Source: Podarcis gaigeae (Eukaryota). Taken from it: a stretch of 64,000 bases of DNA. This document shows positions 11,450 to 57,831 of this stretch, one piece after another. The notes under the pieces are model-generated. The model made no database searches and was not told where the DNA came from. It saw only the letters and a list, made by a program, of their open reading frames with translations. Numbering within the stretch: position 1 is the stretch's first letter; the number at the start of each line of letters is the position of its first letter. Position numbers and translations under genes: made by a program. Location of the stretch: NCBI GenBank assembly GCA_964106915.2, contig OZ066917.1, one strand, 5' to 3'.

Positions 11450-11907
11450 TGTCAGATGCGGCTGGTGGTTGCTCATGAGTAACCAGGCATGACTCTGACC
11501 TGTCTTTTACAGGTTTATTAGTGCAAACTATTTACAGTGCAGGAAACACAAAGTTCATGTCCGTCTAGTCACTTGCAGAATCTGGGAGTGGTCTCTTCCG
11601 GCTTCTCCCCCAACATAAGAACTTAGACACACCAAATCTTCACCTACCCTCCTTGTGTTTCATCTCTCTGCACAGGCTGGGCGACAGACATGGCGTGCCT
11701 GTCTCCTGGCCAGTCGGGCTAGGTGAGGTGCTTGGGCTCTCAGTAGCATCTTCAAGACCTCCCCTCGCTTGGCTACCCCCTTCCTCCTTTGTTCCACTGG
11801 AGGTGTGGCTTTCTCCACCGCTTGATGAGTTGCTGCTCCTCAGCAGCGTCAGAAGCTCTCTGTATTCACTTAACTCCCTCCCCTGCTCCGATGGCAGTTC
11901 CCTAACA
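11450..11907 (-). mobile_element. Solo LTR (458 bp, Gypsy-like) with an embedded reading frame
   Basis: Minus strand TGTTAGG...TCTGACA; flanks CAAG/TAAG (4-bp TSD with one mismatch); AATAAA at 11514-11519 (-). Confidence 0.75.
11565..11906 (-). pseudogene. LTR-embedded frame: S/E/G-rich tract plus basic motif, one internal TGA at 11640-11642
   Basis: VRELPSEQGRE...ATESPSTSPSPTGQETGTPCLSPSLCREMKHKEGR*RFGVSKFLCWGRSRKRPLPDSASD*; open from LTR base 2. Confidence 0.6.
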
Positions 11908-12900
11908 TAAGAATGCTGATACGGCGAGGATAGAAAATATAAATTTGGCAGCAATGACCACTTCTTGAGGCAGGCCTGGCAGATGCTAGAGCATTCAAAC
12001 AACATTCCAGTATCAGGACCACAATGTACACTTTTAATTAAGTAAGTAGTTAAAATTAGATGCATTATCAATCAGTTATCAACACTACATTACCAAAGAA
12101 AAGAATAAAAAGTAAGCAGAAAAAACCAGAGTTGACTGTATAAATATTATGTTGTAGAGAATATTATACTAAATGCTATTTAAACACTTTTTCTTGAATA
12201 AGTCGCACTGATACTTTTATTTCAGTATTTAATTATATTGCTTCTGGGACAGTGTACCCTGCATTTATATATTTTTGTTTGTTATGCCAATAAAGAATAA
12301 ACTTATGCCAAGGTTTTTTTTTAAGTCTTTGTGGTATGACTAGCATTCTTTCCTAGAACCACAATGTTCAAACAAATATCCACATATTAGTGGGATGTCT
12401 AAGGAGCGGGTGGAAATACTAAGAATAAAGAGTTTTAGTACTTTCTCTAGCTATCTCTGTACAGTAAGCACATGACAGGTTTCACCTTCATTTCAAAGCA
12501 CTTCTCCAAATAAATGTAAACATGCTTGCCTGGTTGTTCTTTGCCAACGTATCGCCAATTTTCTTTTCATTTACAATTGATATGCAGAGCACAAAAAAAA
12601 GGAAAACTCTTCTTCCAAAAGGCAAGGAGGAAGACATGGCCTCCTTTGAAACTTTCATGGGGCTATTGACACATTTGCCTGAGTATTTGAGAGCTTGACC
12701 TTGAACCACGATTGTTATAAATCAAATCTCCCTCATGTGGCTATTATTAGGAAATGAATGTAGAGGCTTATGAATTTGAATTTAATTTGTGTTTGAATGA
12801 GGATGTGGAAGTCCTTATGGGTGGTGTTTTTTTGTGTGCAGGTTGGTCAGCATACTTTAAAAAACATCCAGAAGTTAATAAGATTTTCGCTTCCACTTAC

Positions 12901-13041
12901 AGGGTGAATGCAACTGACAGAGCAAGTTCCTTGTAAGGCATCGCACGACTCCTTTGAAAACTCTTATTGCTCTCTGTGGACTGATTCTCAGGAACACAGA
13001 TCTTTTTGTCAGCCAAGGGAACTCCCCCTTCTCGCCTGCAC
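12901..13041 (-). other. Candidate internal exon (141 nt) of an unidentified minus-strand transcript
   Basis: Long pyrimidine tract TTTTCTCTGTGCTTTGCCTCTCTCTCTATCACAG|G and consensus donor CCT|GTAAGT; length is a multiple of 3; two frames are open; no protein recognised. Confidence 0.4.
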
Positions 13042-13724
13042 CTGTGATAGAGAGAGAGGCAAAGCACAGAGAAAATGTATGGACTGCAGAGTTGAAAACT
13101 GGTATATTTCAATAACACAATAACAGGATAGGGTTTTTTATTATTTGTTTCATGACAACAGCATAGAGCATTAATATCTAGGGACTGTCCCAGTGTAGCT
13201 GAAACATCTGGTTACTTTTTAGCATCTGGATCATTTTTCCTTTCCTTTCTTTCTTTGGCTTCGTGCTGGTGTAGGTTAAGCAAGTGATGGCAGTGAAAAC
13301 TGATGGACTCTCTTCCGTTGGTTTGGAAACCCGCCAAGATGACATTCTATAAGTTGCTCTGTATTGACCCTGAAGTGATTGTAATCTGGATCAAAAAGAG
13401 ATCACACTCTCCAGGGAATAGGTGTTTGTGTACATAGATACTCGTTTTAATCTGAGGTCTTCTTACTGTAGGCTGACTGTTCAGCTGTGGTGTATAGACT
13501 AAATCCTCAAACTGTGATTGAAATCCTTTAGAACTGTTGGTCTCTAACCAGAAATGAAGCACTTGTGGGTTTTTTGATATATATTTTTGGCTGCTTCCAG
13601 TGATGAGAAATTCTTGTATGACATGAACGAAGAACAAATGTTCTCAAGACAATCTGTACAACCAAACTTGTATTTTGCGGATATGAACTGCATGGATTGA
13701 TGCACCATTAATTAAAGCACTTAA

Positions 13725-13728
<4 letters not shown>

Positions 13729-13776
<48 letters not shown>
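13729..13776. repeat. (CT)n microsatellite
   Basis: Direct reading. Confidence 0.95.
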
Positions 13777-13779
<3 letters not shown>

Positions 13780-14074
13780 GCTGCCATTGTCTGCTTCATT
13801 CACTAAAGCCAGCAAAGATCCACTAACACAGCACAACAATTGTTTTACATTATTGGCCTGTAGACTCTGATTACTTTCCTACTCCTGCTTAAATACCATG
13901 GTCATTAGGCAGATACTTAACTGTGGAAACCTACAACTACTTCTGAAACTTTTCTATCATAAGAGAGAAGCCAAAAGGTTTGGGGTATTAGCCAAGAAAT
14001 GTGACTTTACTGCTCCTGAAAAATAAAACAAATATTTATTTATGTGTACAAATGTGCAAGCATTAAAAAAAAAA

Positions 14075-14300
14075 TCAACGCTATCAATGGCTACTTGCCA
14101 CAATAGCTATATTGTCCCTCTAGGGCCAGAGGCATTATGTCCCTGAATGGTAGTTGCTAGGAATCCAAAGTTGGATGAACACAATCACTTGCAAGTTGAG
14201 CTTGTGGGCTTCCCATAAGGGCATATGGTTGGCAACTGAGAGAATCAGATGCTGAACTAGATGAGCCTTTCATCTGATCTAACAGGGCTCTCCTACTATG
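14075..14300 (+). mobile_element. Decayed CR1-type 3' end
   Basis: CTATCAATGGCTAC...GATGCTGAACTAGATGAGCC...CTGATCTAACAGGGCTCT resembles 27800-28000. Confidence 0.55.
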
Positions 14301-17300
14301 TTCATATAATAGAAAAGTAAATCAAAGCAGTGAACAAGAAATATAAATGCATAAAAACATGACAGTGAAATTACACAGAACAATAAAACAGTAAAGCTAA
14401 CCAACAACTGGCTGAGTTACATATCAGAGAAAGTCCACCTGAACAGAAAATTTACAATACCTATAAGGAGGGAATATATATAATCTATGTAAACATGTAG
14501 CGAGTATTTCATAAAATGTTAAAGGGAACATATTTACTGGCTCTGGTTCAACCTGATAAGAACTGTCATGTCACATCACTTCTGTAGATCACAGTCTCTA
14601 ACATTCTTTTAGATGAGCTGGCCGGAAGTTGGAGGAACTCATGAGAAAACTACTCACTCTACTTTGGGGATATTTTTACTACTATTCTGAGACACAGCAA
14701 TACAGGAAGTTCTAAATTATCAATATTTACTCCAATATTATTTGTTATCCTTAAAAGCTATGTGCCAGAAAATCCCATTCCAGCAATTGTAGGGGGGGGG
14801 GGGGAATCACCACACACACACACTCACACACAGACTTCTGATCTTTTTTTGTAGTGATAGCCTGCTAGTTTTGTTTCGTTTTTGCCCACAATACACCAGA
14901 ACATCCAGGCCAATGTATTTAGGGGAAATTGAATTGGTGGTTGCAACAGCAGCCAATGAGAGGAACAGACATTCATTCTGTTTACTGTCCACATAGGAGG
15001 GACGCTTGGGTGGCATTCAGCTGAGAGCTCCTCAAATCCTGGAACCACTCCTGGTTTGTTTGAGTGGTGAGAGCTCTCCAGAGCCTCAAAGGGGCATTTC
15101 CTGTCAACTGTCTTACCCTATGTTCTTTTTTCAAAACAAAAACCAGTAGGTGGGATCAACATGCAGCCTTCTGCAGGCATTGCATATGCTCTGCTTCTGA
15201 GAGCCATGGCTTGATACTCCTATTCTCTCCACCCTGCTTGACCTGGATGAATATTAGGGTAAGCTTATGCAGACTGTCAATTCAAATCCTGCTTCACAAC
15301 CTCTTAATATCATACTTGACTTTTGCTTCCTCGATAGCCATTCCTCTGTGTTCAATCATATTTTATGCTGGTTTCATAAAAAGCTCTGTATTATTTTTTT
15401 AAATCCCTCTGAGGAAATGTAAATCTTTTGAATTCCTGCTCCACTATGATCTTTTTGAAAGAAGGAGGGGAGTGAAAGGCAGCTGCCATGTATTTCACTT
15501 CCTGCAGTAAATTTGTTTAAAATATGACTCTTCTAAAGTACCTTTATATGTGGTTAGGAGTATCGTATTTTACGGCTTTACCTTCTTCAAACGTTCCAGA
15601 CATGGATTCTCAGAGCACATAATTTGGCACAATCCACTGAGGGACACTACAAATCAGGAAGCAAAGACCTCAAGGAAATGGTTGATAGTAACAAGACTGT
15701 GGGGGGATATGAGCATGAGAAAGATGCTTAGGAAGGATCTCTATATTGATGCAACACTGATGGACTCATTTTAGTCACACCCTTTCTGCCGTAAGGTATC
15801 CACAATCTCCATTCGTCATTAAGAAAACGATTAAATTTTCAAATCCATTTTTCAACACACAGATACATTTACAAATAAATTGGTGAAGCTAACACTAATT
15901 GGATTTAGTTGATTTACATACTAATGGCTTCAGTACAACTTAGTCATCTAGTGGATGACTGTGGATACAAATATCTTTTGGAGCTATGCTACCTTTGATA
16001 ACAGAATATTGTGGGTACAATATTGCAGGTTTAAAAAGGGGATCCTTTTTAATCTGTTGATAGACCTGTGATGGTGCTGGGCAGGACTGGCAGAAGATGA
16101 GCAGTAATTCTCACTTTCCAAATCAATCTGAGGACCAAAACGCAGCCATTATTTTGAAATCACACTCCTCTGAATTTTGCAGTTCAGTTCTCCAACCAAG
16201 TAAAGTGTACAAAAATGCATAAACTGGATTAAAAAGTGCTTAAAATGCCTTAATTAGTGAAAATAACATTCCAAAATAAATTACATGATGCAGAATTGCT
16301 TTGCACAAATGCGTATACATTAGGATAAATTCATATTAAAATACTAGCGAATATTCACATGTACTTTTAAAAAATGCAAACTGATGTTGGAGTGTTAAAG
16401 AATGGAGCTTAAGACTGCGAGAATGAGAGATCCTTAGGGAGCAAAAACAGCAATGAGTGGGGTCATCCCCTCTCTTTCTGTTGTTTCCTTGGACTCAGAT
16501 TGGTAAAGAAAAAGCTTCTTATATGCGTCATATATGCATTAAAACACTGCGACACCAGATGGCGATGTGGAGTTCCATTTTTGCCAACGCGATTTCTCAT
16601 ACAAAGTTTACAACGTGTTTTCTTGAAATGTGTCTAGATCCAGCCCTTGTTTCTCTTTCTACCAGCCATTATCTCTGCCTCTCCGTGGGCTCCCAGTGGA
16701 TGTCCAGATCACTCTTCCCAAAGGTCTGAACTGATTGCTTATGCTCACCCCTTCTTCCATCACATCATTCATTTTTTTGTTTTTAGCTTGTCCCCCTTCC
16801 ACTCTCCTTTTCTCCTGCACAGGCTCCAGGATCCCTGCTCCCATCTAAAGCATTGGAGTCTCTCCTGCACATCACCTGTCCAGCTTTCTTTGTTTTGTGT
16901 GCAACTTAGCAGTGACTGGAAATTATGGCCCTCCATAGCCAGAGTTCCGTAACTATTATTCCTTACTAAAGCACGGAAAGCTAGTTTCCTTGCAAGCTCA
17001 ACCTACTTCTTTGGCCTTCTTTTTAATGATGTTCTCTTTATCCATCATTTCCTGATGAGTGGTGATGGAATGCAACATCTGAGGCTACGTACAGCTAAAT
17101 AATACACCTGATGGGTGTACTGGCCAGCTGCATATCCAACTCTATAGACTTCCAACTCCTTTCAACTCTATGATTCTATGGCTGACACTGCCCATGAATT
17201 TATGCAACACAATTACCAACTACAGCATACCTGAGAATTGGAAATGTAGAACCAAACAGACTTTCTAATCAAGAGTAAGGCAACATCTCTCTCCCTCCCA

Positions 17301-19369: not shown

Positions 19370-19608
19370 TTTTGTTGTTCGGTCGTGTCCGTCTCTTTGT
19401 GGCCCCATGGACCAGAGCATGCCAGGCACTCCTGTCTTCCACTGCCTTCCACAGTTTGGTCAAACTCATATTAGTAGCTCCAAGAACACTGTTCAACCAT
19501 CTCATCCTCTGTTGTCCCCTTCTCCTCGTGCCTCAATCTTTCCCAACATCAGGGCCTTTTCCAGGGAGTCTTCTCTTCTCATGAGGTGGCCAATGCATTG
19601 GAGCCTCA
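19370..19608 (-). mobile_element. RTE/BovB LINE 3' fragment
   Basis: Minus-strand translation RWLNSVLGATNMSLTKLWKAVEDRSAWHALVHGATKRRTR followed by a (CAA)n-type tail, typical of the BovB/RTE ORF C-terminus. Confidence 0.85.
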
Positions 19609-22546
19609 TAGCCTAAATCCCAACGACGTGTAATTTCACTACAAATCTATGCCTTTTACTATGTCATGGATGTACTCTCTGCATTTAGTGGGAGAATATC
19701 TACAAAGTCAACTCATACTTTCTCCAGTCCGCTCTGACTTAACTGAATGTAGAATATCTATACAAATTTAAAAAAACACAACACAAAGCCTATACCAAAT
19801 AGCCAAAGTGAATGGGATTGGCCCTGGCATTTTGAGTGTGTGCTGAACTTCTCCATTTTATTTGAGCACATGAATACACATGTTTAACTTCTACATTTGG
19901 ATAAAGGGATTAGGCAGTGAGTAATGTCTGACAACCACTGTGCGTGGTTTATTTGCTTTAAAACATCTGTTGGATCTGCTGAAGATCAAAATCAATTAAA
20001 AAAATAAAATTAAAAAACAGCATGCTCCAGCAATGCACAATACTAGAAAGCACTTTGCTTAAAGACAAATCTTCCTAAATTTGGGTGGTGGTGGAGGGGC
20101 AGAGGGTGGAATAGAGGAACTAAAGGAAGGCCATAAATTACTCTAAACAGCCCATGCTGTTTGGATGTCTGAAGTGGCAGGATTCCAGTCACTTATAACT
20201 ATTTGCATCACTGATGCCAAGAGAAAAACACAAACGTGAAAAGAAGACAAACAAGGGGAAGAGAACAAGGGGCTAAATCAATACACAGCTGAACTAGTCT
20301 GAAAGGGATTAAAAAGGGAGAGGGAGAGGGAGACGGACACCAGAAAACACAGGAGACTTGAGAGATGTAGGTGGGAGAGGGAAAGGAAGGAACTCTGAGG
20401 AGGAGTAATTGGAAAGTGCTGCTGTGGATGAAGCTCTTGTCTCCAAAAGGCTTTGCCTTAACTTTAAACAAACGTTACATATGCAAAGAATTTGGGTGGC
20501 CCTGGATTTTCCCTTCTCATTTTCTCCTTGAAAGGTGATATGCAGAGCCTGGGTATTTTGAGGGTCTTCACGGGAAATGACTCTGCATAACAGATGGAGA
20601 GGAGCCCCCCCCCTTAAAGGAATCACACTTCTTTCATGATTAGCCGTGTCTCAGCTAGTCTTTGTATGCAAGGGGGATGCGATTCTTTGAACAGTGTTTT
20701 GCATGGCCCCCTCATGGAAAACCCTTACGGGCATTTGGGACTGAAAACATGCGCTTCTTCTCAACTGGCATCCTGCTTTTGACTGGTTTTTATCATTGTG
20801 TTTTGGACATCCCATAACATATTGAAATGCTTTCTGATGACCATTCTCTGATTACATTTTATGCATTATCTTCACAAGCATGATTAAAGTGGACCAGGAA
20901 ATGGAGTAAATATATAGGCTGGGATCAGTGAAGCTACTTTAGGTGTCTAAGGGCTTGGACACATCCAGTGGTATTTTTGAGGATCCCCCTCCACCTTTAA
21001 ATACTTAAAGTTAATATGATTATACCTGCATTCTCGTTGATTGCTTGTAGGGCCTTTAATACAAAGATGACTAGTACCCTGCAAAAGCATATTCTGTGTT
21101 GCACTTTTTCTTACAGTGCCTATGGAACAGTCCTGATTTTTGGGTACCTGTCATTAGTAGTAAATGACTGATCCTATTTTGTTGCTCCTCCTTTTTATAT
21201 ATGGGAGAAATGTTGGATACATTATTAGAATGTTACTGTTGAGTGCACACATAGGTGAACTGGAGTTATTCAGGTGTCATATACTGTAGTTTGAATTTTC
21301 TCTGAAGAGCTCAGATATCTTCCTAAGGAAACTAGGAACTATCCCAAGCCTGGGAGAAAAGCTTCCTATTCCCACCAGATTTCTGCCACCATCAAATTCC
21401 CCTTTGCACCCATGCAACATTTGGAAAGGGAAAACGATTGCATCTTCTCTTTTCTCAAGTTGTCAGGCCTTCCACCATCAATGCCATAAGTGTCCATTGC
21501 TAGAGTGAAGCCTGCAAACAAGAGCTTTAAGTATCTTTGGAGTCAAAACTGAGCAAGAAACAATTGTCAGTGGCAGTTCCCAGGATCCCAAGAAGCAATG
21601 AATGCCTTAAGATTGAGACTTCTAATAGTGTGGATTTTCCTCAGTGGCATCTTTGACCCATTGGAAGCATACATTTGGGAAAGGAAAGCTGAATGCCTTG
21701 TCTGAACTTCTACGGAGGTGCAGAGATGTAAATCCATTCCAAATTCAGTATTCTGAATCTGAATCCCCTCCTGCCCTTACAAGATTCAGAACCATTGCTA
21801 GTTTATTCATCCTTCTGGATTTCTCCAAGTTAAATCTTTCACTGTTGGGCGGATATAACTTGGTTGCAATGTACATGACAAATGAATGCATGCACACATT
21901 ATATCAGCATACTGCTTCCCCTTTTAACAGCATGTGCATATGCAAGTGTTGTTAAATGAGTCTGAATTAACAGCTATTCTGTGATATGTACCAACGTTTC
22001 CACTGTGGTTTGAACCATGGCTAGAAGTTTAAGGGAATGGACAACTTACTGCTTCAGAGAAAGACATTACAGAGTTAATGGATGCAAAGAGTAGCAGATG
22101 GAAAAGAGCCTCTAGCAATGTATAATGGGTGGCACTCAAGCATTGATCCCTGGCATGAAGATAGAGCCGTTCCAAAAGTGTCTCTATTTTTGTCTGTGCA
22201 GCGTTAGAGGGTAGGCATTTTCATGGTGCTATGACCCCAGAAAGCCATTCATCTACCACATCCTGACAAGTGATGAGGAGAGTTTTATCAATTCTTTGAA
22301 GCTTGCCATGTCTATTGGCAAAAGCAAGAATGCTATCCAGACTTTCAACAGACCACACTGTATTGAAGAGCCGTAGAACATTATGCGTTGAAAATATTCA
22401 GAAGGTACAGACTGTTTTACAATTACTAACAAGAAGTTTTTGAGACTATGTCTTTTTTCTTTTAAGTCACTGGATGCTCAATTCCTCCATCAGCAAAACT
22501 AATACATGTACACATGCACAAAGACTAAAAACAGAAGAAATGGTTA

Positions 22547-22788
22547 CAGTGGTACCTCGGGTTACATACGCTTCAGGTTACATACGCTTCAGGTTACAGA
22601 CTCTGCTAACCCAGAAATAGTGCTTCAGGTTAAGAACTTTGCTTCAGGATGAGAACAGAAATCGTGCTCCAGCGGTGTGGCAGCAGCAGGAGGCCCCATT
22701 AGCTAAAGTGGTGCTTCAGGTTAAGAACAGTTTCAGGTTAAGAACGGACCTCCGGAACGAATTAAGTACTTAACCCGAGGTACCACTG
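22547..22788 (+). mobile_element. Tc1/mariner-type MITE, 242 bp
   Basis: TIRs CAGTGGTACCTCGGGTTA/TAACCCGAGGTACCACTG; TA on both flanks; internal GCTTCAGGTTA repeats. Confidence 0.92.
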
Positions 22789-23196
22789 TACTCATTTGTC
22801 CCTTGGATACATTTCACACAAAAAACTGTTGCTTCCTCTACATATGACAGACCATATTTTAAAATATCATTATGCATATTCTGTCCAGGTATAATACTGG
22901 TGCATGCCACCCCAATCTCTGTAGCCTTTTTTCTAGCTTCTAGCTCATATGACTCAAAATCTCAACTCTGGCCTTTGTTTTTCCACTGATCAACAAATTG
23001 AGGGAGGAGAGTCCACCCATTTGCTATCTGGTACAGAGCCACTTCCTTTGTGACTTTAATGTCCCATTCTTAGAAGGCCATTATGTCACCAGGAAGCCAA
23101 TTTGGCTATTCCAGGAATTGAATCTGTGCTGGATCCAGGAATTAGAAAGGGGCTCAGGCATACAACCCACCCCAAACTTATAACAATATTGTTAGA

Positions 23197-23926
23197 CAAA
23201 AAGGTAAAAGTAAAGGTGGCGCTGTGGGTTAAAGCCTCAGCGCCTAGGACTTGCCGATCGAAAGGTCGGCAGTTCGAATCCCTGCGGCGGGGTGCGCTCC
23301 CGCTGCTCAGTCCCAGCGCCTGCCAACCTAGCAGTTCGAAAGCACCTCCGGGTGCAAGTAGATAAATAGGGACCGCTTACCAGCGGGAAGGTAAACGGCG
23401 TTTCCGTGTGCGGCTCTGGCTCGCCAGAGCAGCGATGTCATGCTGGCCACGTGACCCGGAAGTGTCTCCGGACAGCGCTGGCCCCTGGCCTCTTGAGTGA
23501 GATGGGCGCACAACCCCAGAGTCTGTCAAGACTGGCCCGTACGGGCAGGGGTACCTTTACCTTTACCTTAAAGGTAAAGGACCCCTGGATGGTTAAGTCC
23601 AGTCAAACTTGACTATGAGGTGTGGCGCTCATCTTGCTTCAGGCCTAGGGAGTCAGTGCTTGTCCACAGACAGCTTTCCGGGTCATGTAGCCAGCATAAC
23701 TAAATTGCTTCTGGTGCAATGGGACACTGTGACAAGTGCCAGAACGCACAGAAACGGCGCTTACCTTCCCACAGAAGTGGTACCTATTTATCTCATAATC
23801 ATCATTTATCTACTTGCACTGGTTGCTAGGTTGGCAGGAGCTGGGACCGAGCAATGGGAGCTCACCCCTTCTGATTGGCAGGCCTAAGAGACTCAGTGGT
23901 TTAGACCACAGTGCCACCCGCTCCCC
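23197..23926 (-). mobile_element. Sauria-type SINE (outer, older copy) whose tail is interrupted by a second SINE
   Basis: TSD AATATTGTTAGA on both sides (about 23185-23196 and 23927-23938); AAAGGTAAAGG tail; head ...GTGCCACCCGCTCCCC. Confidence 0.85.
23216..23569 (+). mobile_element. Sauria-type SINE (inner copy) inserted in the tail of the outer SINE
   Basis: GTGGCGCTGTGGGTTAAAGCC...GTTCGAATCCC (B box)...GGGGTACCTTTACCTTTACCTT; flanked by AAAG(G)TAAAG. Confidence 0.9.
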
Positions 23927-25574: not shown

Positions 25575-26066
25575 TGTCAGGGACTGGACTGAGGAGGAAT
25601 GGTGGGAGCCACCCCCTTTTTCTGAACCTTCCCAAGGGCAGGAGGAAAGTATTAATTTAGAACAGTGGTTTGCAGAAGGGCACAGTCCAGAGGAGAAAAG
25701 CTGGGAAATACTGGATGACGAACAGCTAGAAGAGGAAATGCCGAGAGAGACAGCTGGCAGGTTCAGTGTCCTTGGACAGCATTCCTGACCCCCCCCCCTT
25801 CACTCAAGACTAGATGGGCTTGGAAAGTGATAGAACAGAAAGCACAACGACAACGAGCTCAGATTACCCAATTTAGGAGTGATATAGATTAATGGGGATG
25901 GAGTGGGTGAACATTTATTGGGAACAACACCATTTTTTAAAGAGATATGCATTCCTTTGTCTCTTGCTGTGATGATTAAAGAATTTATCTGGTAAGAATG
26001 CTCTTTTCGTTTGATCTGCTTATTTACTGCCACCGGGGGAGGGATCTGATTCACTGAAGCCTGACA
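25575..26066 (+). mobile_element. Solo LTR (492 bp, Gypsy-like) with an embedded, frameshifted reading frame
   Basis: TGTCAGG...CCTGACA termini; perfect 5-bp TSD CATGG at 25570-25574 and 26067-26071; ATTAAA at 25975-25980. Confidence 0.88.
25576..25892 (+). pseudogene. LTR-embedded acidic frame with two inferred frameshifts (GA run near 25745, poly-C near 25790)
   Basis: VRDWTEEEWWEPPPFSEPSQGQEESINLEQWFAEGHSPEEKSWEILDDEQLEEEMP / RQLAGSVSLDSIPDPP / PSLKTRWAWKVIEQKAQRQRAQITQFRSDID*. Confidence 0.5.
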
Positions 26067-31383: not shown

Positions 31384-31399
31384 TAACAATACTAGTAAC

Positions 31400-31567: not shown

Positions 31568-31583
31568 CTATTAACACACATAA

Positions 31584-32446: not shown

Positions 32447-32447
32447 T

Positions 32448-34929: not shown

Positions 34930-34931
<2 letters not shown>

Positions 34932-37454: not shown

Positions 37455-38330
37455 CAACACAGAATCATAGAACTGTAGAGGCCAGGAATCTTAACTAAAA
37501 CATCCATGACAGATGGCCATCCAACCTCTGCTTAAAAACATCCAATGAAGGAGAGTCCGCCACCTCCCAAGGGAGTCTGTTCCACTGTCAAACAGCTCAA
37601 TATCAGAATTTTTAGTCGGAATCTCCTTCCTTGTAGGTTGAAAGCCATTGGTTTCTAGTCCTACCTTTCATAGCAGGAAAAAACATGCTTGCTCCATCTT
37701 CCATGTGACAGCCTTTTAGATATTTGAAGATGGCTATCATATGTCCAAGGGACGTGGGTGGCGCTGTGGGTAAAAGCTCAGTGCCTAGGGCTTGCCGATC
37801 GCATGGTCGGCGGTTCGAATCCCCACGGTGGGGTGAGCTCCTGTCATTCGGTCCCAGCTCCTGCCCACCTAGCAGTTCAAAAGCACCCCCAAGTGCAAGT
37901 AGATAAATAGGTACCGCTTTATAGCGGGAAGGTAAACGGCATTTCCGTGTGCTGTGCTGGTGCTGGCTTGCCAGAGCAGCTTCGTCCCGCTGGCCACGTG
38001 ACCCGGAAGTGTCTTCGGACCGCGCTGACTCCCGGCCTCTTACCTTTACCTTTTTATCATATCTCCTCTCATTCTCCTCTTATCCAGGGTAAACACACCT
38101 AACTCCTTCAATCATTCTTTATAAGGCTTTGTTTCCAGAGAGTTGATTATCTTGCTCGCCCTCCTCTGCACATGTTCCAGCTCATCACTATCCTTCTTGA
38201 ATTGTGGTGTCCAGAATGGGACACAGTATTCCAGATGTGGACTGACCAAGGCATAATATATTTGTACTTTACTTCCCTTGAGTGCGACAGTATACTTCTG
38301 TTGATGCAGCCTAGAATAGCATTAGATTTG
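37455..38330 (-). mobile_element. CR1 LINE fragment (ORF2 C-terminus and 3' tail), interrupted by a SINE
   Basis: Minus-strand SKSNAILGCINRSILSHSREV is a CR1 ORF2 signature; AGAATCATAGAA tail at about 37461. Confidence 0.85.
37747..38054 (+). mobile_element. Sauria-type SINE with a 3' internal deletion, nested in CR1
   Basis: GGGACGTGGGTGGCGCTG head; TACCTTTACCTTT tail; TSD TATCATAT(G/C)TCC. Confidence 0.9.
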
Positions 38331-46400: not shown

Positions 46401-47840
46401 TTGTACCAGAGCGTGGAACCAAAAAAAGGGACATTCCAGGATCAAATCAGAACCTGGGAATGGCTTCTGTAATTCTAGGGTGTCTTACTTAAATTGGACA
46501 GTTGAGTGGTATATATGGCAAGAGCATGTCGCAATCCTCACCTGCTAGATGTGATAGAAAGAGAAGAGGGCAGTAGAGGTATGTTGCTGATTTTGGCGAG
46601 GAACTCCACTTTCCCCATAATGGCCTGCTTTCCACAACATGGTTAAGTCCAGCTATGGATTTCATGCTTTCAGCCAGTTTGCTCCTTCCTGGTCTTTCTT
46701 AGTTGTGTGCCACACTGAACCAAGGTTTGGTTTGTGTGTCATCTGAACCCAGGATCACAACTCATGTTTTTCCTTGCTAAGCATGACCTACTATATCAAC
46801 CCACACATTTCCTTCTCCCAAAGCCACAAACTGAATGAGGAATGTACCAGGCTGTGTCTATGCTGAACCCCATTGTGTTCCAAAACTAAGTAAACTAGAT
46901 AGAGGAACAGCCATTGATACAACAGTTTGGCTACTTGATATACAGTACAACTCAGTGACACAGAAGGCCTTGCTTCACTACTATCTTCTGCAGAGAAACA
47001 TGCATTGTAAACTTATGACATGGTAAGAGGATTAATCTCTGAAAGCTAAGAAAATATAGTGCTCTGAATATATTTTCATGCTTCTACAGCAGCCACACTC
47101 TACACTCCATATTTTGTTGGCAAGAGCCATGATGAATCAAACAGTGCTGGATATTTGTATTAATATCTGTTTACACCTTTCAAGAGGTGTAAATCAATGA
47201 TGGCAAAATCAATCACGATGGTAATTTTCTGCTTAGATATGAGAACATTCCCTCAATTGAGTTCTGTATCTGTTTTGAAAGGCCAACCTGAACGTCTGCT
47301 AATTTTCCATTTGTTAACAGCATTCATGGCTCTGACTTGAATACATATATTTTACTGCACACCGAACAAGCCATTGCATTAATGTGCACTAAAAGTCATA
47401 GCTGTAACAAAACAGCACACATATTAACATAAATCAAGGCAACATTGCTCCTGGTGGTCTTACAACATCATTTTCAGCATAAACACAATGCACGCATACA
47501 ACTTTGGTTGGCCAATGTTGGATCAACAATTTCTACACATTAAAAGGCAGAGCTTAGTTGTTCCCAAAGAGGGGAAAAGATAATTATTTTCCAAGGGTCT
47601 ATGGGTCTACACTTGTGTGCGTGCAGGTGGTCTCTTCTCTGTGCAGCAGAAGCCTCACATTACTTATGATGTCATGTGCTTATAGAATTATAAAGTCTTA
47701 GACTGCATTTTCAGTCTGGAATGGTACATGAAAGAAGCCTTACACGTCCAAAGGGCTTAATATTTGCTGGCACTGAAAAAGGAAAAGGAAGGCAGCCTAG
47801 TCCAGAGCATAACATTAAGGCTGGGATACAAAACCCTATA

Positions 47841-48196
47841 GGGACGCGGGTGGCGCTGTGGTCTAAACCACTGAGAGACTAGGGCTTGCTGATCAAGAGG
47901 GTCGGTGGTTCAAATCCCCATGACGGAGTGAGCTCCCGTTGTTCAGTCCCAGCTCCTGCCCACCTAGCAGTTTGAAATCACATCAAAGTGCAAGTAGATA
48001 AATAGGTACCGCTCTGGTGAGAAGGTAAACGGTGTTTCCGTGCACTGCTCTGGTTCGCCAGAAGTGGATTAGTCATGCTGGCCGCATGACCCGGAAAAAC
48101 TGCGGACAAACGCTGCCTCCCTCGGCCAATAAAGCGAGATGAGTGCCGCAACCCCAGAGTCATTTGCAACTGTAAGGGATCCTATACCTTTTTTTT
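47841..48196 (+). mobile_element. Full-length Sauria-type SINE
   Basis: 14-bp TSD TACAAAACCCTATA at 47827-47840 and 48197-48210; canonical head. Confidence 0.92.
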
Positions 48197-48533
48197 TACA
48201 AAACCCTATATGCAGTGTTTCACCTGACTTTATGTTCCATTGGCATATGAACTGTTCCTTTTTAAAAAGCACTTCCCTCTCTCTAAAAGACCTGGGACTC
48301 TGTGGAGCACAAATAACCAAGAGGACAAATCAGCCACATCCCACCCTGTGTCTTCACGATATTGCATTTTATGATTCTAGATCCCAAGCAACATCCCAGT
48401 ATTTGTGTAGAAGAAACCCAAACTCATTTATGTTGGCTAATACATTTCTGCAAATGAAAAATAGCAAGTAAGAAGTTTTAAGCCATCTCCCACCACCTGC
48501 ACAGAAATAATGGGAAAGCCATATTCAGAAGAA

Positions 48534-48775
48534 CAGTGGTACCTCGGGTTAAGTACTTAATTCTTTCAGGAGGTCTGTTCTTAACTTGAAACTGTTCTTA
48601 ACCTGATGCACTACTTTAGCTAATGGGGCATCCTGCTGCTGCCACGCCACCTGAGCCCGATTTCTGTTCTCATCCTGAAGCAAAGTTCTTAACCTGAAGC
48701 ACTATTTCTGGGTTAGCAGAGTGTGTAACCTGAAGCGTATGTAACCTGAAGCGTATGTAACCCGAGGTACCACTG
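48534..48775 (-). mobile_element. Tc1/mariner-type MITE, inverted copy of the 22547 family
   Basis: Same 242-bp length and TIRs; flanked by AA on both sides. Confidence 0.9.
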
Positions 48776-48830
48776 AAATTGTAATAGATTTGGTTAACAA
48801 CTGAGCAGCTTTACATGTACTTTAACCATA

Positions 48831-49189
48831 AAGGTAAAGGTACCCCTGCCCGTACGGGCCAGTCGTGTCCGACTCTAGGGTTGTGCGCCCATCTCACTTA
48901 AGAGGCCGGGGGCCAGCGCTGTCCGGAGACACTTCCGGGTCACGTGGCCAGTGTGAGGAAGCTGCTCTGGCGAGCCGGCACCAGCGCAGCACACGGAAGC
49001 ACCGTTTACCTTCCCGCTGGAGCAGTACCTATTTATCTACTTGCACTTAGGGGTGCTTCCGAACTGCTAGGTGGGCAGGAGCTGGGACCGAAAGACAGGA
49101 GCTCACCCCGCTGCAGGGATTCGAACCACGACCATGCGATTGGCAAGCCCTAGGCGCTGAGGTTTTACCCACAGCGCCACTCGCGTCCC
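48831..49189 (-). mobile_element. Full-length Sauria-type SINE
   Basis: 13-bp TSD TACTTTAACCATA at 48818-48830 and 49190-49202; AAGGTAAAGG tail. Confidence 0.92.
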
Positions 49190-52100
49190 TACTTTAACCA
49201 TAGCCATCCATAAATAACCAAATTAATGTAAATCCTAATGTTCAACTTAAAAGCGTTGTGTACTGAATCTCAACAACCTTTCTAGATGGGCAGTTCTTAC
49301 TGATTTGTCATAGGAAATCCAGATGTCTCTCCTCAAAGCAGTGTGTCTGCTCTAAGGATGTTTCCTTCTTCCCCATCATGCCAGCAGAACATTATTTTGC
49401 TCCTAGGATAATGCAGTGTATGCCACAGCTAGTGCATTCATTGTGGGTTGTATCCAAAGCAGTGAGGTGTGAACATTCTTTCAGCGCAATGATTTCTGCA
49501 GTGGGATGTTTTCCTTTTCTCCTCCCCGTGTGCACCCCTCAATCTGTCCTAGGATTTCCTCCAACCCCGGGAAGCAGATTTGGGGAGGGTGTGGCATGCA
49601 CATTACCATTACATCACCCATCTTTCTGTGTCAGCCAAAACCATTTCTCTTCAGCCTGGAACTCAGTTAGTTTTGCCACGGGCTGGTGACAATAAGTGTG
49701 TGGTAACACAGACAGGCTTTTTCGTGGGTGGCACCAGTGTTGTGGAACGCTCTCTATTGGACTATAAGAGGTCTCATTGGTACTGGGATTTCACTAGCTC
49801 TTGTTTAGACCAGCTTTCCCCTGATCTCCTGACCTGGACCTCCTGTTTTAATGGCTATTTTAACTGCTTTAATAGTACCATTTTAATTGACTTTTTATTG
49901 CACATTTTTATTGTGGATGTTTATTTTAATGTTTGATGGAACTATTTTATTAAGCATTTTAATCATCTTTGTTTACACCTGTAACCTGCTTGGAAGCCAC
50001 TTGGGAAACTGAGTGGTATGGAAATATAATAACAATAGTACATGGCAGCAGAGAGGAAGATTTTATTGGATACCTACGGTTGCTACCCACAATACACATT
50101 GCAGACTTATCCAATGCATCCAGAAGGATCTACTTGGGGTGGGGGGAAATGATGGGTTCTTTAGTGGTTGTCCTACCCTTGTACCACTCAGTCTGAAGTG
50201 ACTTCAAGACTATTCACCTGCAGGACCAGAATTCCAAACCCATACCAAAGAACCAAACCTTGCAATCACTTCTGAACTATTATCTGCTTACCCAACACAG
50301 TTAGGATCTGAATTGCATCACCTGCAAGCAATGCCCTACCTCTCTTTTCACAGGTCAAACAAATCATCAAGATTCCATAGCCTCTATGTGTTCCCTTGCT
50401 AATGTAACAATATATATAGCAGTGAGGGCTGCTGACAGCCCCTGGTTTTGGCAGAAGTTCCAGTCAGGTTCCAAAAATGCTGAGCCAAGTGCTTATGATC
50501 CCATCTTTCCGCTTTCGCTGCTCATTTTCATGCTGAAACCCTCAAGCACACTTAGGTCTGTATCTGTTGACTTACTGTCAACTGGAGCTGCAGCATTATT
50601 TGGGCAGGGGCTTTCTCACAAAGCTACCCAACAGACCCAAATTTGAAAAAGCTTTTTTTTTTTCAGGTGTGGATGAAGACATGACCCTTCATCTCCACCT
50701 CCCACTGTTAGTTATATAGTCTAACCTTTTAGCCACTTTTTCCATGACCATGGAATGTGTACCTTGGGAAAGCAAATTCCAGGAGGGAGTATGCTGAAGA
50801 ACGTTCCTCTATCACCCTCGTTGCTTCACCCACTGATTTACAAGCTACTGATTTACAAGCTGTGAATGAATAGTAGCCTTCAACAACAGGAAGCTTGGTC
50901 ATTGAGAAACCTGATCTCTTCACATGGAGCCAGGAGACGAGCCCTGGTGCCTACAGGAAAATTCACTCCAGGAATCCCAGTAATCAGAGCTGTTAACCAG
51001 AAGGAAATGTCTTCAGTGCGCTTACATGGCGCTTAATCAGCTACTGACAGAGCACCTTTGATCAATGGGTTTTCAAAACGAGGTTAACTGCAGTTTACAA
51101 TATGTCCACATACATTTCACAGTCAATCCCAAATGTACACATTCAGAGAAATTATTCAGTCATGGATCTTTCCACTAGTTCCCCATTGATTTGCTGGTAT
51201 CTTAGAAAACTGACTGAAAGAGATAGCTATTCACATATGTTGGAGTACTCCCAATGGCTGCAATGGTACTGCACTTGGCAATTGGATCCCACTCACAGAA
51301 ATTAGTGATGGAGCTCTATATTTATATCCAGGAGAAGGAAATGTGTTAAAAATAATAATATTAATCCCTGACCTTATCTATTTAGAAAACGCTACTGGTA
51401 ATAAGTAAACAGCACCTACAAAGATTTGTTTTCCAAGTTGATTGTGTACAGATTCATATCACCAAGCCTGAGTTTGAAGATTTCTGCTGCACATATTACT
51501 GCCACTAATATTTTGATTTTAACAGTACCAATAGAAATCAAAACTAACCCAGACTATGTAAACTGATCTTAGGTCCCACTGAAATCAAGTTAGACATTAT
51601 TTAACACCTTACTTCCCAAAAGCTGAGTTGGTACAGTTTACCATAAAGGAGCCAAGAAGGGGCAAGGCAGAATGCAGAAGTTGTCACAGTACAAACATAA
51701 CGGCAGGAGTACTGGATTGGCCTCCATGGATTGTTTGCACTGCGCCAACCTTCCTCCATGAAACATATTTTCTGTGTAATATCTTTTGTCATTTGTCTCT
51801 AAGGTTGGCCATGCTGGGTCACCTGGACAAGTTCTTCCCTCAAGGAAAGTAAGGGAGTATATAGAAGGTGAAGTTTTGTATAGGCTGTCAAAGAAAGAAT
51901 TGATGCCTACGCACCTGGTGGTACAATAAAGCATGATGTTAACATGCGACTTGCTTTTCACAATGTCCAGTGATAAACCCTAAGACTGGGCTTCAGACAC
52001 GACCCTGCAAAAACACATGTTGCCTCTGCCCCACAGCCCTGGACCCTTATGAGACTTAGAAGTATTGCCTCTAACTAATGGCTGAATAGAGAATTAATGT

Positions 52101-53127: not shown

Positions 53128-53425
53128 AGGGCTGAGGCTCAATGGCCAAGAAGCTGCACTGCATGTAGGAGATCACAGATTCAATCCCCAGAATCTCCAG
53201 GTGGAGCTAAAAATGCCTCCATCTGAGACTCCGAAGACTTGCTGTTGGTATAGACCAGAGATGGTCAAAGTGGTCCTCTCCAGATGTTGTAGGACTCAGA
53301 CTTTCACAAGCCCCTTTCCAACATGGCAAATGGTCATGCGTCATCTGGAGATCACCATATTGGCTATCCCTGGTGCAGACGAAACTGAGCTAGATGATAC
53401 TGAACCAGATGGACCAATGGTGGAG
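53128..53425 (+). mobile_element. Decayed tRNA-derived SINE interrupted by a ~120-bp palindromic insert (about 53254-53373)
   Basis: GGGCTGAGGCTCAATGG...GATTCAATCCCC head; CTGAGCTAGATG...GGACCAATGG tail; inner CTCCAGATG...CATCTGGAG inverted repeat. Confidence 0.5.
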
Positions 53426-53499
53426 CCCAAATGGCACATTCTACTAGGGCATTTACAAAGTATTGCTGTATCATTTAGAAGCATTTCCTGCTTTCATCT

Positions 53500-54030
53500 G
53501 CTATTATTATTTGTTATTATTTTTTTCATTTATATACTGCGTATATGCCAAAATGGCTTCTAAGCAGTTTGCAATTATAAAATCTGTTATAAAACCCATA
53601 CATAATCCAAATACACAATAACAATTCCATTAGTGCCTTAAAACACTCTTAGTTAAAATATACAATAAAACAAGCCCGTTAAAATGCACGACAATTGAAG
53701 CAGTTTTTTTAAAAAAACATGAAAACAATAAGAGCAGAAGTTCAGGGGGATGCTTGCCTGAACAGATGTGTCTTTAGGAGCCGGTAGAATGCCAATGCTG
53801 ATGGTGCCTCTTGTATTTCAGTGGGGGGAGGACATTCTGTAACACTGGTGCCACCAGTGAACCACAAGCTGAAAATCATCAGGCTGTGGCACACTGGGTT
53901 CCATTTGCCAATCATAATGCCTTTACTAAGCAACAGAGCTGAATATAGTTTTTCAGGAAAACTGGTACAGAGTTATTTAGGGTTTTGAATGTAATTAACA
54001 GAACCTTAAAACTAGCTTGATGGCTAATGC
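53500..54030 (-). mobile_element. Old L2-like LINE fragment
   Basis: Minus-strand PTEIQEAPSALAFYRLLKTHLFRQA resembles the L2 ORF2 C-terminus (FK..LKTHLF motif). Confidence 0.7.
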
Positions 54031-54101
54031 TGTATTGTTTTTAACACTTGATTGGGAGCTGCCCAGAGTGGCTGGAGAAACTCAGCCAGATGGGCAGGGT
54101 A

Positions 54102-54150
<49 letters not shown>

Positions 54151-54151
54151 G
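54031..54151 (+). mobile_element. LINE (probably L2) 3' end with (AAT)n tail
   Basis: GGGAGCTGCCCAGAGTGGCTGGAGAAACTCAGCCAGATGGGCAGGGTAAAT followed by (AAT)n. Confidence 0.75.
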
Positions 54152-56654
54152 GCGACTACTTCACATCCCTCAACACCGGTACAATATGTGTCTGATAAAG
54201 AGCATCACTCGCCACTGAGGCTGCTGCATTCTGCCTCTGGACCATCTACCTGCCTCTCCTCATGGTTACTTTACCCTGCTGAATTGTAAAGCTAACCCTG
54301 GGCAAGCAACAGTGGGTATGTTTACCTGTCCTTCTAGCTCAGCCACCACACCTTCCTTAGAAAATGCCTCAGTGCATACTTACCTCTCCTGTAGGTAAGG
54401 AAAGTAGGTGGGGTATATTAATAGTAACATGATGTGAATCCTGCATGTCGCAGAGCTGGCTGTGTTGTGCCTGTGTTGGACCTTTTCAGAATCGGCTTTA
54501 GAGCTTCAGCACAAAGAACTTTGGTCCCAAGCTGTGCCGTGAGTGCATTTAGCAGTGCTCAGGAAATCATTGAATCATATATTTGGAAGGGCTCTAAACT
54601 TATCCCCTGCCCTCAGGTAGAACCATCCATCAGCCAGCCCCTCCAATAAAGTCACTAATTCAGCTTAGCAGCTTGATTCACAGCTCAGTTAGAATGAAGC
54701 CTGCTAGATACCGATTCCAGAGGTTTACGAGTGCTCAGTTGTGCGCATGGACGGCCCACCAATCACAGGCCTCTCTGCTCATTCCAATGCATGGGGAACA
54801 AGACCCGTGCTTGCAACTTCGTAACAGTATCTTTAATTCAAACACTTGTCCAAATAAAATGTATCTATAAATTTGAGAAAACCTCCTTGGCGAGCCGCAC
54901 AATGAACAGAGCAAGGGGAGCCAACGAATAGAAGCAAAACTATCTGGAAAGAAAATCTTTATTCAGTGAGCTGACGGAGCAGTCGAGGCTTGAACTCATT
55001 AGCTAGAAATGATTAATACAGATGGGAGAAAATGGTAGAGCATTCCCCTAGGAGAAGGTGAAGCAATTACAAATATAATAAATAAGATTAATTTTCACCA
55101 ACAGTGGGGAGTTTGTTTGGTTAGGTTACGACCGCAAGTCTCTACTGGCAAGTCTGAATGTCCGTATGAATAGAGAGCATGAGATATCTTGGTATCTGTT
55201 CACTACAGTACGGCAGACTTCAAACATTACAACATTGTTGTCTCTGTGCATGTTTACATGTAATTTAAAAACCAAACCATAAATAAACAAAGGGGACAAC
55301 TGTGCAAGCACCAGGACAAGAAGAGCCTTGTGTGCTGACTCTGAGATTGAAAGCAGATGTCCAGTTCTCTAATTAGGCACGATTCAAGCTGCCTGTAGCG
55401 CATAAAAGCCGTTGTTTGGGAATTGGTGGGAGGGGCCAATCTAACATAAACATTATTTGTCTTTTTTTGCTGCACATGGCAAGAGATTAAAGCAAACGCC
55501 AACACATTAATCACGGGGAAAATAGTCTTCAGGGAAGGCACTTACATATGTACCTCTGGTATCTTTCAAAAGTGAAATGTTTAGAAGTCGGGGTTTACGG
55601 TGCTTATTATTCAGGCATAGTAGGCCTGAATAGTTAAGGCACAACCCCATGCACCGTTCCTGAGAGGGAGGTCTGCATGGCTTGGCTATGGCTGACCATG
55701 AAATTGGGTATATTGATTTGTTCCAAGCAAGTTCCAAAAGGATTTTTCACATGATAACAAGTGAATGAGAGATTGGAGGGTTGGTCTTTCCCCCACCTAT
55801 CAATACACTTTCCTAAGAGTGAATTATTTTCATGTATTGAAAATATCAAGATTCACTTTATGTCCTTCCTGGATGATTTGTGGATTTGAGGTGAGTTATA
55901 TCTGCAAAGCTCTTGAGAAACTTTTGGCTTTGTTTGGCAGCACCACAGCCAACTTTAGTTCTATACCCCACTATTTCACACTTGAAAATCCGGCATGCTT
56001 GCAATACTCCAGTGATCATTGTCCAAGGTCCTACCTTTATATCAGAGTTATATCGGCCTGTTGGCTTCCATTATGCTGTTGCTCTCCAGCTCTCATCAGC
56101 CCCAACTACTGGGTAATGGTCAGGGATGACTGGAGATCCCCTTCCCTGCTTTACATATGAAAGGTTGTTCACCACTTGCTATATGGTGTCTTGGTTTATT
56201 CTGCAATAGTCCAGCACCCACTGATTTAAAAGCTGAGATACATTTTTGTATCAATGTGAAAGTATTTTATCAATATTAAAGGTGTGAAACCCCCCTTTTA
56301 AAAAAATGCTGTTGATGTTCACTTGGAAGCATCGAAACATTTTGATTACATACTTGTGACCTCAATGCTATCAGTGTGAAATGATGTGATTTGGATCAAC
56401 TGCCATTTGAGCACATCAGTTTATGAGGTGAAAAGAACGAACCCAGAGTCTATCAGCCATTTCCCCCTGTTTTTGTTATCTAAATTTTATTGATTTTTCA
56501 GCATAGTTACAATAACAATATAAAAGCATTCCACCCCACTTTCCCAACACACTTCCTTTTGTGCCATAACTAAGTTCTAATTGCATTAGAATTTTAATTG
56601 CATTAACTTTAGCTTCCATAGTTTTTATATTGCTTTTATTACAGGGTGAGTCAT

Positions 56655-56840
56655 GGAAGAGCATAGATGAGCAGTACAGCACCTGCTATGCATTCATAAT
56701 GTCCTAAGTTCACTCCCTGGCATCTCCAGGTAGGTATGGGAAAGATCCACACCTGAAACACTGGATAGCTGCTGCCAGTCAGTGTAGACAGTACTGTGCA
56801 AGATGAACAAATGACCTGACACAGTATAAGGTGGAATGTA
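56655..56840 (+). mobile_element. Decayed tRNA-derived SINE
   Basis: GTTCACTCCCTGGCATCTCCAGGTAGG...GCTGCTGCCAGTCAGTGTAGACAGTACTG body shared with 10530 and 59702. Confidence 0.6.
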
Positions 56841-57071
56841 CACACATAGAAAAAAAACACTGTGAAAAAGATTTTTTTTTTAAGTTTTGAAAAATACATG
56901 GAATTTTGCATAGCTCCCTTTCACCATCTAGTGTCACATTTGTATATTGCACTTTACAACACATTTAAAACGTTTCATTTACAGCTGTATAATACAGATT
57001 CCTATGTTTCTATATGCCATGAGTGTTTGGTTAGAGTATAAATTCTGTAAACAAATAATCAAATACGTAAT

Positions 57072-57831
57072 TGTCAGGGGTTCAGAAGGAGAGACACAGG
57101 AGGGGGAGCAAATGGAGAGTGAGGAGGAGGAGTACGAGGGAGGCGCAGGCAGTGACAGTGGCCAGAGTTATTCCACAAGCCTCTCTAGCGAATCGGAGGA
57201 CTCACAGAAGGGAGCGCCGGTGGCCAGAGCGAAGGGGGCTCCAGGGGGGAAGCCCCAGGAGGAAGGGGCTAGCGGGGAGTCCCTGAGCAGCAGTTGGAAA
57301 TCAGGACCAGCTTCTCCACCAGAGCGCAGTGGGGAGGGGGAGTCCCAGGAGTCGGGACCAGTGTCCTCACCACCAGAGGGAGGAGAGGAGTCAGGTTTGG
57401 CAACGCCCACATCAGGAAGCGGGGAAACGGTCAGAAGGAAAGTCACCGGCTGGGCGCGCGCGCCAAGTTCAAATGTACAGGAGCGCGGCACAGCAGGGAG
57501 CCCAGAAAGGGAGCCAGGTCCTAAAGCCCTCCGGAGTGAGGGGCAAGACTCAGGAGGTTCAGCGTCAGAGGAGTCCAGGAAGGAGGGAACCCCAGAGGGC
57601 AGAAAGACCCAGCGAAGGAAAGAGCAGCGTAGGAGGTGGAGCTGGGCTAGAATCTTAAACTGGTGTGGGTGGAGCAGTGAGTCAGAGGGGACTTAGCCGG
57701 TCTAGCGTTGAGACGTGGGTCTGCGCGCCCAGAGCTTGGAAATGGAAACTAAACTTTAATAAAGACTTTTGTATATAACATCCACTGGGCGTTGGTCCTC
57801 TGTGAGCTGGGACCTAGTGGCAGTCCTGACA
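57072..57831 (+). mobile_element. Young-looking solo LTR (760 bp, Gypsy-like) with an uninterrupted internal ORF
   Basis: TGTCAGG...CCTGACA termini; perfect 5-bp TSD GTAAT at 57067-57071 and 57832-57836; AATAAA at 57758-57763; CpGs retained. Confidence 0.92.
57073..57696 (+). CDS. LTR-encoded 207-aa S/E/G-rich disordered polypeptide with a C-terminal basic/Trp motif (first ATG at 57112)
   Basis: No stop from LTR base 2 to TAG at 57694-57696; ends TPEGRKTQRRKEQRRRWSWARILNWCGWSSESEGT*. Confidence 0.55.
   Translation, partial: VRGSEGETQEGEQMESEEEEYEGGAGSDSGQSYSTSLSSESEDSQKGAPVARAKGAPGGKPQEEGASGESLSSSWKSGPASPPERSGEGESQESGPVSSPPEGGEESGLATPTSGSGETVRRKVTGWARAPSSNVQERGTAGSPEREPGPKALRSEGQDSGGSASEESRKEGTPEGRKTQRRKEQRRRWSWARILNWCGWSSESEGT

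Follow-up and report, generated by a model that had tools for sequence, protein, structure and literature searches.

The 64,000-nucleotide stretch of Podarcis gaigeae DNA analysed here (the window; assembly GCA_964106915.2, contig OZ066917.1) carries three solo long terminal repeats (LTRs) of Gypsy-type retrotransposon families. Each of these LTRs contains, from its base 2, a frame that enters the U3 (unique 3') region; in full-length relatives this frame is continuous with pol, and it is under purifying selection. The three LTRs, which together with their families are hereafter called 57k, 11k, and 25k, are as follows:

57072..57831, + strand: 57k, solo LTR of a young chromovirus-type Gypsy family, with a perfect 5-bp target duplication (GTAAT)
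11450..11907, - strand: 11k, solo LTR of an older family (82-88% identity), with flanks that lack a clean match and an imperfect target duplication
25575..26066, + strand: 25k, solo LTR of an older family (83-88% identity) from a lineage with a more canonical chromodomain, with a perfect target duplication (CATGG)

A preliminary description of the window had placed three mutually dissimilar LTRs at these positions; TG..CA ends were verified in all three, and pairwise blastn gave nothing longer than 20 bases (best E 0.003). A first look at the genome assembly yielded 791-2165 candidate copies per family, with identities of about 99% within 57k (40 best matches) and 81-88% within 11k and 25k. 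No gag or pol was present when looked for within the window.

Open frames in the window LTRs

The frames and the motifs near their ends, the latter delimited by sequence comparison, are located as follows, together with the poly(A) signals, which were found behind the frame in all three LTRs, as previously described:

57073..57696, + strand: 57k U3 frame of 207 codons plus stop, corresponding to the end of pol where the LTR is the 3' one of a full-length element; it cannot be translated from this solo copy
57589..57666, + strand: 57k basic block with the I-L-N-W-C tail end
57758..57763, + strand: 57k poly(A) signal AATAAA (LTR position 687)
11565..11906, - strand: 11k U3 frame, 113 codons in family copies; the window copy has an internal stop at 11640-11642
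11607..11684, - strand: 11k SP, basic block, and F-L-C-W motif, with decay at CpG sites
11514..11519, - strand: 11k poly(A) signal AATAAA (LTR position 389)
25576..25788, + strand: 25k acidic U3 frame from base 2, open for 70 codons in the window copy
25800..25865, + strand: 25k SP-x-x-RR basic segment that lacks the L-x-W end, out of phase in the window copy
25975..25980, + strand: 25k poly(A) signal ATTAAA (LTR position 401)

The preliminary description had proposed that all three LTRs read V-R from base 2 and stay open through an acidic tract into a shared, exactly defined motif. All three do begin with V-R, but this is no independent evidence, because these residues are encoded by the common TGTCAGG terminus; Table 3 of PMC3601003 gives TGTYANR as the Sushi end motif. 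The frame is open through the motif in the 57k copy (207 codons) but stops at codons 89 and 71 in the 11k and 25k copies, respectively, and the 25k motif was wrongly taken as continuous with the base-2 frame, two frames having been joined. At the family level, 28 of 30 57k copies are open for 207 codons and 9 of 30 11k copies for 113 codons, while among 50 copies of 25k the commonest length classes put the SP-x-x-RR motif in phase with base 2. The explanation of the deviant residues in the window as CpG decay held up well; Arg stands in 17/29 and 21/29 other 11k copies where the window copy shows C and H, the column of its stop is a sense codon in 27/28, and in the 25k family Pro is found in 23/26 and Arg in 18/29 copies, the deviations in the window being minority states. 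The exact motif, on the other hand, was over-fitted: it fits none of the three window copies, occurs in 1/30 (57k), 11/30 (11k), and 7/30 (25k) family copies, and is absent from all 16 open tails of sister families and from the Podarcis muralis Pol models that were checked. Of 3000 sequences per LTR generated under a first-order Markov null, 4 kept frame 2 open this long and none of 3000 produced the exact motif, which had itself been drawn from these three sequences. Pfam searches with the three window U3 frames gave no match at E<0.001.

The pol frame extends through the polypurine tract

With regard to full-length relatives, a chromodomain search gave 150 matches, of which 70 were examined; a large share of the 150 lies on contig C32 (29.5 Mb), possibly the W chromosome. 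The idea that pol might cross the polypurine tract in frame and enter the LTR at base 2 was borne out in these relatives. Fourteen loci (L204, L205, L222, L230, L231, L234, L237, L238, L240, L241, L243, L244, L249, and L250) are free of stops from the chromodomain to the stop at the end of U3, and in loci of additional families the frame reaches well into U3. In the second of two junction sets, 20 of 32 junctions join pol to LTR base 2 in phase (p=7e-4 relative to an expectation of one third; the loci were partly picked for long frames), as does one 25k-family junction. Protein collections give a similar picture: in a P. muralis Pol cluster of 23 members, 10 of the 15 listed end in a 57k-type tail, the full models (gene models) having about 1500 residues, and three more tails were found in Logan and ENA proteins (P0004, a Logan contig protein that is continuous into the tail, P0026, and P0086). 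The nearest named proteins are from P. muralis, and in UniRef the tail already sits, uncommented, inside automatic Pol models.

Selection on the U3 frame

The ratio of non-synonymous to synonymous substitution rates (dN/dS, or omega) in the U3 frame is below 1 in all three lineages, as a selected protein segment had been expected to show, with pairwise values of 0.1-0.6. When the window copy is compared with ten diverged 57k copies, frame 2 has a dN/dS of 0.19-0.38 and the other two sense frames have 0.76-2.44 (the pairs are non-independent); the same comparison gives 0.06-0.14 for the integrase region (0.46 in one frameshifted copy) and 0.19-0.28 for the spacer ahead of the polypurine tract. 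Non-CpG variants of 57k are distributed over the three codon positions as 13/16/35 when shared (p=5e-4) and as 28/32/45 when singletons (p=0.055), and in 29 young copies the shared variants comprise 7 synonymous and 1 non-synonymous change, the private ones 11 and 17, respectively, and one stop. Subfamilies of 57k with identities as low as 78% still have 210-233 open codons, their net indels being divisible by 3; consistent with the anticipated bias, lengths divisible by 3 are also seen for the sole U3 indel common to several copies and for every indel in the most diverged copy, and the shared indel 3' of the stop is of 1 base. Between groups of 11k sister families, the chromodomain has the lowest dN/dS (0.08-0.13), followed by the SP-basic block (0.13-0.25) and the acidic part of U3 (0.39-0.56), within-group values being noisier (0.2-0.9), while the 25k group and five sister copies differ at 13/14/35 sites by codon position (p=3e-4). 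Finally, codon models of 17 and 15 open copies gave an omega of 0.3 for the last 42-48 codons and of 0.5-0.6 for the linker, and omega=1 was rejected in four of four tests. The tail is a real, selected feature, the function of which we infer.

Element class, self-priming, and chromodomains

Six two-LTR copies of the 57k family were recovered, of 6.6 kb except for one with an insertion, with gag and a pol that encodes protease, reverse transcriptase, RNase H, integrase, and an SH3 domain (PR-RT-RH-IN-SH3); no env was seen in full-length 57k copies. For the 11k family, pol and gag remnants were found, and for the 25k lineage the integrase end alone was seen. In L036, a ~2 kb insertion in the pol tail (internal 5575-7540) carries an opposite-strand frame of 582 codons, and tandem elements with a common LTR, preceded by a purine tract and followed by a primer-binding site (PBS), occur at L016/L035 (106.25-106.26 Mb of contig C3) and at 8.30 Mb of contig C8.

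These elements are self-priming, chromodomain-type Ty3/Gypsy families (probably of the Tf1/Sushi group), the tree built here relating lizard families only; self-priming is described for the Tf1/Sushi group in PMC6317226. The 57k PBS, which is no tRNA site, has 12 bases complementary to LTR 613-624. In a sister lineage, 10-11 bases of the PBS match the LTR from 285-287 onward and covary with it between families, and a 10-12-base self-complement occurs in 6 of 11 two-LTR elements; a pattern search for the 11k-family 5' LTR gave 12 matches, none of which shared a PBS, and no 5' LTR was recovered for the 11k or the 25k family itself. The self-priming PBS places the start of R, and by this placement the frame spans all of U3 and stops 10-22 bases into R. 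In the 57k window copy, the two elements concerned are:

57684..57695, + strand: predicted self-primer and start of R, 12 bases complementary to the family PBS
57654..57659, + strand: CTTAAA at the TATA position (-30 to -25 from the predicted start), covering the I-L-N codons; putative promoter element

Pfam chromodomain PF00385 scores above its cut-off in four of five proteins of the 11k-type and 25k-type lineages, with L204 just below, and the 57k family has no Pfam chromodomain match, yet its remnant aligns with the chromodomains of sister families; this family also has the longest tail. By eye, and at the positions that we take to be those of the cage aromatics, the first is lost in all three lineages; the 11k-type lineage also lacks the third, and 57k lacks both the second and the third. 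The definition of group II chromodomains used below is that of PMC3605345.

Composition of the tail

An acidic, low-complexity tail with a selected basic C-terminal block, as put forward in the preliminary description, was upheld as a C-terminal extension of integrase. The last 42 residues contain 11-14 Lys or Arg as compared with 3-5 Asp or Glu in 15 of 16 tails. As for the C-terminal pattern said to be shared by 11k and 57k, an Arg/Lys block followed by hydrophobic-[LIV]-[CNS]-W recurs in the 11k-type and 57k lineages; when 57k rows were left out of the profile, the 57k tip outscored 498 of 500 shuffles. Even the most distant tails (L204, L213, P0026, and P0086) keep hydrophobic-[LIV]-[CNS]-W with a Cys adjacent or inside and with flanking Arg/Lys. 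Most 11k-type and 25k copies, and most 57k copies of the window genome, have the suggested proline-directed site, but the Pro is present in only 4 of 10 P. muralis tails. On sequence grounds, homology of the 25k motif to the 11k/57k tip is unproven.

A PDB profile search with the tip motif returned no match at E<=10, and the ESM Atlas gave no usable match for the U3 part and only chromodomain clusters under 0.8 for a longer part. An AlphaFold2 model of chromodomain plus tail was discarded, as its mean pLDDT (predicted local distance difference test) was 43 and the chromodomain itself was unfolded, and a predicted complex between the tail tip and H2A-H2B of the same genome scored 0.01, which is evidence for neither side. 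A cyclin-docking RxL motif was also considered and dropped, since the 11k and 57k families have Phe or Trp at the Leu position.

Interpretation and alternatives

We favour, as fairly probable overall, the reading that the window holds solo LTRs of chromovirus families whose pol spans U3 under selection, with a tail that likely serves as a chromatin tether or in nuclear import. That the tail is the C-terminal end of Pol is very probable; given such a Pol tail, a chromatin or nuclear role would be likely by its position and make-up, in analogy to the CR motif of plant CRM elements and p12 of murine leukaemia virus (MLV). U3 would be transcribed only from the 3' LTR, and the tail would be made once per genomic RNA, as the Pol end; with U3 entering RNA from the 3' LTR only, solo LTRs would be silent copies that cannot express it. 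Integrase would thus end in a long acidic linker and a basic tip, which would likely tether the integration complex to chromatin or import it into the nucleus, and the U3/R DNA would have a triple use, with the 5' copy acting as promoter, the 3' copy encoding the protein end, and a self-primer besides. The U3 tip probably assumed the role of an Arg-rich stretch that fish relatives bear right behind the chromodomain and that is absent there in the lizard elements.

A number of observations weigh against this reading or against parts of it. The first, older junction set has only 10 of 23 junctions in phase (p=0.2), and among the 57k-family junctions (100 listed of 232) 34 are in phase. The 11k family alone is star-like, with variants at 6/6/10 by codon position and hence no third-position excess, and the contrast between singleton and shared variants in 57k gives p=0.0095 with CpG sites but 0.15 without them. 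The SP-RR block is missing from L204, L213, and P0026, so that the SP site is not universal, and 25k tails compared with the 11k/57k profile are in register at SP-x-x-RR with a best E of only 0.18. In addition, the codons of L-x-W and P-L-x-D share bases with the TATA position and with the self-primer, so that part of the conservation may be at the DNA level. The Leu codons of L-L-C-W vary synonymously, and the AT run is lost in L244 and L205; because of these synonymous changes, some of which remove the AT run, and of the low omega upstream, we consider that selection acts on the protein as well.

With regard to phase, the out-of-phase junctions differ at three G runs of the polypurine tract, where 25 of 81 scorings are short; at the remaining G6/G7 runs the count is 3 of 113, and on these numbers we reject the view that the out-of-phase junctions stem solely from a general under-calling of homopolymers. 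In short-read contigs from three runs of one species label, the in-phase class is about three times deeper than both one-base-shorter classes combined, contig depth being a crude measure of the share of a junction class, and contigs from a run of another species label show no in-phase depth excess. Slippage in the G runs looks real, though overstated by assembly. The 57k tract has four G runs in 40 bases, three of them length-unstable, other G runs being stable; the four runs are, we presume, G-quadruplex-like. In the 25k-like L148, L170, and L171, a duplication of 45-48 bases (a multiple of 3) of the LTR start and purine tract stands in frame ahead of the LTR.

It is unlikely that the open frame mainly shortens the 3' untranslated region (e.g., for escape from nonsense-mediated decay or for RNA stability), the tail being tolerated filler and its tip a core promoter plus self-primer. 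Such a role would fit a stop that lies 10-22 bases past the predicted start in two lineages, a Pol that covers nearly all unique RNA, a Trp codon that ends at -21 from that start in both the 11k-type and 57k lineages, the preceding codons covering the TATA position, and a linker that is the least constrained part (omega 0.4-0.6). Openness alone, however, predicts an omega of about 1, yet omega is 0.13-0.25 in the SP-basic block, which lies upstream of the TATA position, and the L-L-C-W Leu codons change synonymously even where the AT run is gone. We give little more than slight credence to a reading of the basic, hydrophobic, Cys-bearing tip as a signal for membranes, particle assembly, or RNA binding (e.g., a palmitoylated amphipathic end). 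A hydrophobic-Cys-basic pattern may mark S-acylation, and hydrophobic-[LIV]-[CNS]-W plus Cys persists where SP-RR is lost (L204, L213, P0026, P0086); the tip codons, however, coincide with the TATA position. The tail lies behind the integrase chromodomain, the place of targeting domains in chromoviruses (PMC3059260).

The preliminary description had also allowed for a separate accessory protein, and a U3 gene comparable to nef or sag, expressed from spliced or leaky-scanned RNA, is conceivable at least in the 57k lineage, but very unlikely. In that lineage an in-frame ATG in strong context stands 5 bases ahead of the LTR, behind the unstable G runs, the resulting M-D-V is seen in P. muralis models as well, GTAAGT follows the 5' LTR, and two thirds of the assembled junctions are out of phase with pol. 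As a general rule, however, the proposal fails, since pol runs on into this frame without a break and, outside the 57k lineage, GTG takes the place of ATG in 50 of 55 junction matches; the PBS of the other families starts with GCAATC, which is no donor, the 57k GTAAGT is the self-priming PBS, and the in-phase class is the deeper one in the three short-read runs. A chance open frame in purine-rich LTR DNA is scarcely credible. The LTRs are indeed 56-64% purine, and the motif was picked after the fact; against this stand the rarity of equally open frames in the null trials, the continuity with pol, and the selection tests (frame-specific omega below 1 in three lineages), by which chance is refuted.

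Relation to known systems

HIV nef and sag of mouse mammary tumour virus overlap U3 and are expressed only from the 3' LTR, as separate genes, from spliced RNAs, and in enveloped retroviruses; the lizard frame, unlike these, is the end of pol, in elements in which no env was seen. A precedent is group A of the centromeric plant CRM chromoviruses, in which, according to PMC3059260 and PMC3605345, Pol runs past the polypurine tract and a putative targeting CR motif lies in the 3' LTR; the same sources describe pol running into the 3' LTR for some Beta Bingo families. The lizard chromovirus pol likewise extends into the 3' LTR, but the plant elements use a tRNA-Met primer, whereas the PBS of the lizard elements is complementary to their own LTR. 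In the plants, moreover, the CR motif stands in place of a chromodomain; the lizard elements keep a group II-like or decayed chromodomain upstream and add 100-230 residues over all of U3.

Fish elements of Tf1/Sushi type appear to share the shorter form of this arrangement. Among 148 new profile matches, 77 have a canonical chromodomain, 43 of these being Arg-rich just behind it and 13 having G-G-x-V; in 10 of the 13 G-G-x-V proteins, 20-26 residues follow, with an S-P/L-x-F/Y-like end, and the named ones are from catfish and carp. Chromodomain, junction-like G-G-x-V, and short continuation are thus alike (judged from protein sequences, with a predicted LTR position). The fish proteins, however, have their Arg-rich stretch ahead of the junction, and their continuation is exceeded 4-10 times in length by the lizard tails, which consist of an acidic linker and, at its far end, a basic tip. 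Because fish relatives show this continuation, a short read-through is probably ancestral.

As for function, the gammaretroviral p12 C-terminal domain, the chromatin-binding sequence (CBS) of foamy virus Gag, and LANA are described, in PMC6021111 and PMC9040877, as using a short Arg-rich segment with an upstream phospho-Ser for tethering an integration complex to nucleosomes; for MLV p12 the tether is S61 plus SRLRG (PMC6021111). These tethers to the acidic patch are Gag-derived or herpesviral and unrelated in sequence, and the lizard tail is likened to them by position and make-up. Of 93 junction copies of 57k, 34 are situated no more than 1 Mb from a contig end, where 1.8% would be expected, and among the youngest insertions the count is 3 of 32, these being contig ends rather than mapped centromeres; retention or targeting at chromosome ends is a candidate reading of this excess. 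In a more far-reaching scenario, which is possible but doubtful, lacertid chromoviruses would have repeated the CRM innovation independently, with a decaying methyl-lysine chromodomain and an entire U3, along with its core promoter, turned into the gene for a phospho-regulated nucleosome tether on integrase that steers insertions to chromosome ends and heterochromatin, and with G-run slippage disabling the tether in some daughter copies.

A literature search of titles and abstract beginnings, outside subscription journals, Repbase notes, and supplements, found no report of such a tail from squamates or other vertebrates. While pol running into the 3' LTR is already known, a selected tail of 100-230 residues beside a decaying chromodomain was not found in the literature searched. 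U3, usually taken as non-coding promoter DNA, is in these elements also protein-coding under selection across a radiation of vertebrate retrotransposon families, down to codons that lie over the TATA position and the self-primer. The tail would provide a vertebrate counterpart to the plant CR motif, with a short conserved peptide suited to direct tests of chromatin targeting; thousands of lizard solo LTRs contain a ready-made coding exon, and LTR trees and dating of these families are shaped by selection on protein.

Other observations

Two P. muralis host gene models, P0005 (UniRef A0A670JKR6, a phospholipid-transporting ATPase) and P0057 (A0A670J3D8, a SEC7-domain protein), end in frame in an 11k-type LTR tail, which may be either an annotation artefact or an LTR-derived last exon. 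Elsewhere in the window, dispersed repeats resembling short interspersed nuclear elements (SINEs), of a Sauria SINE-like kind, lie at 23227-23576, 37748-38042, 47832-48062, and 48818-49190, and an inverted pair of 249 bases with 94% identity is formed by 22544-22792 and 48530-48778.

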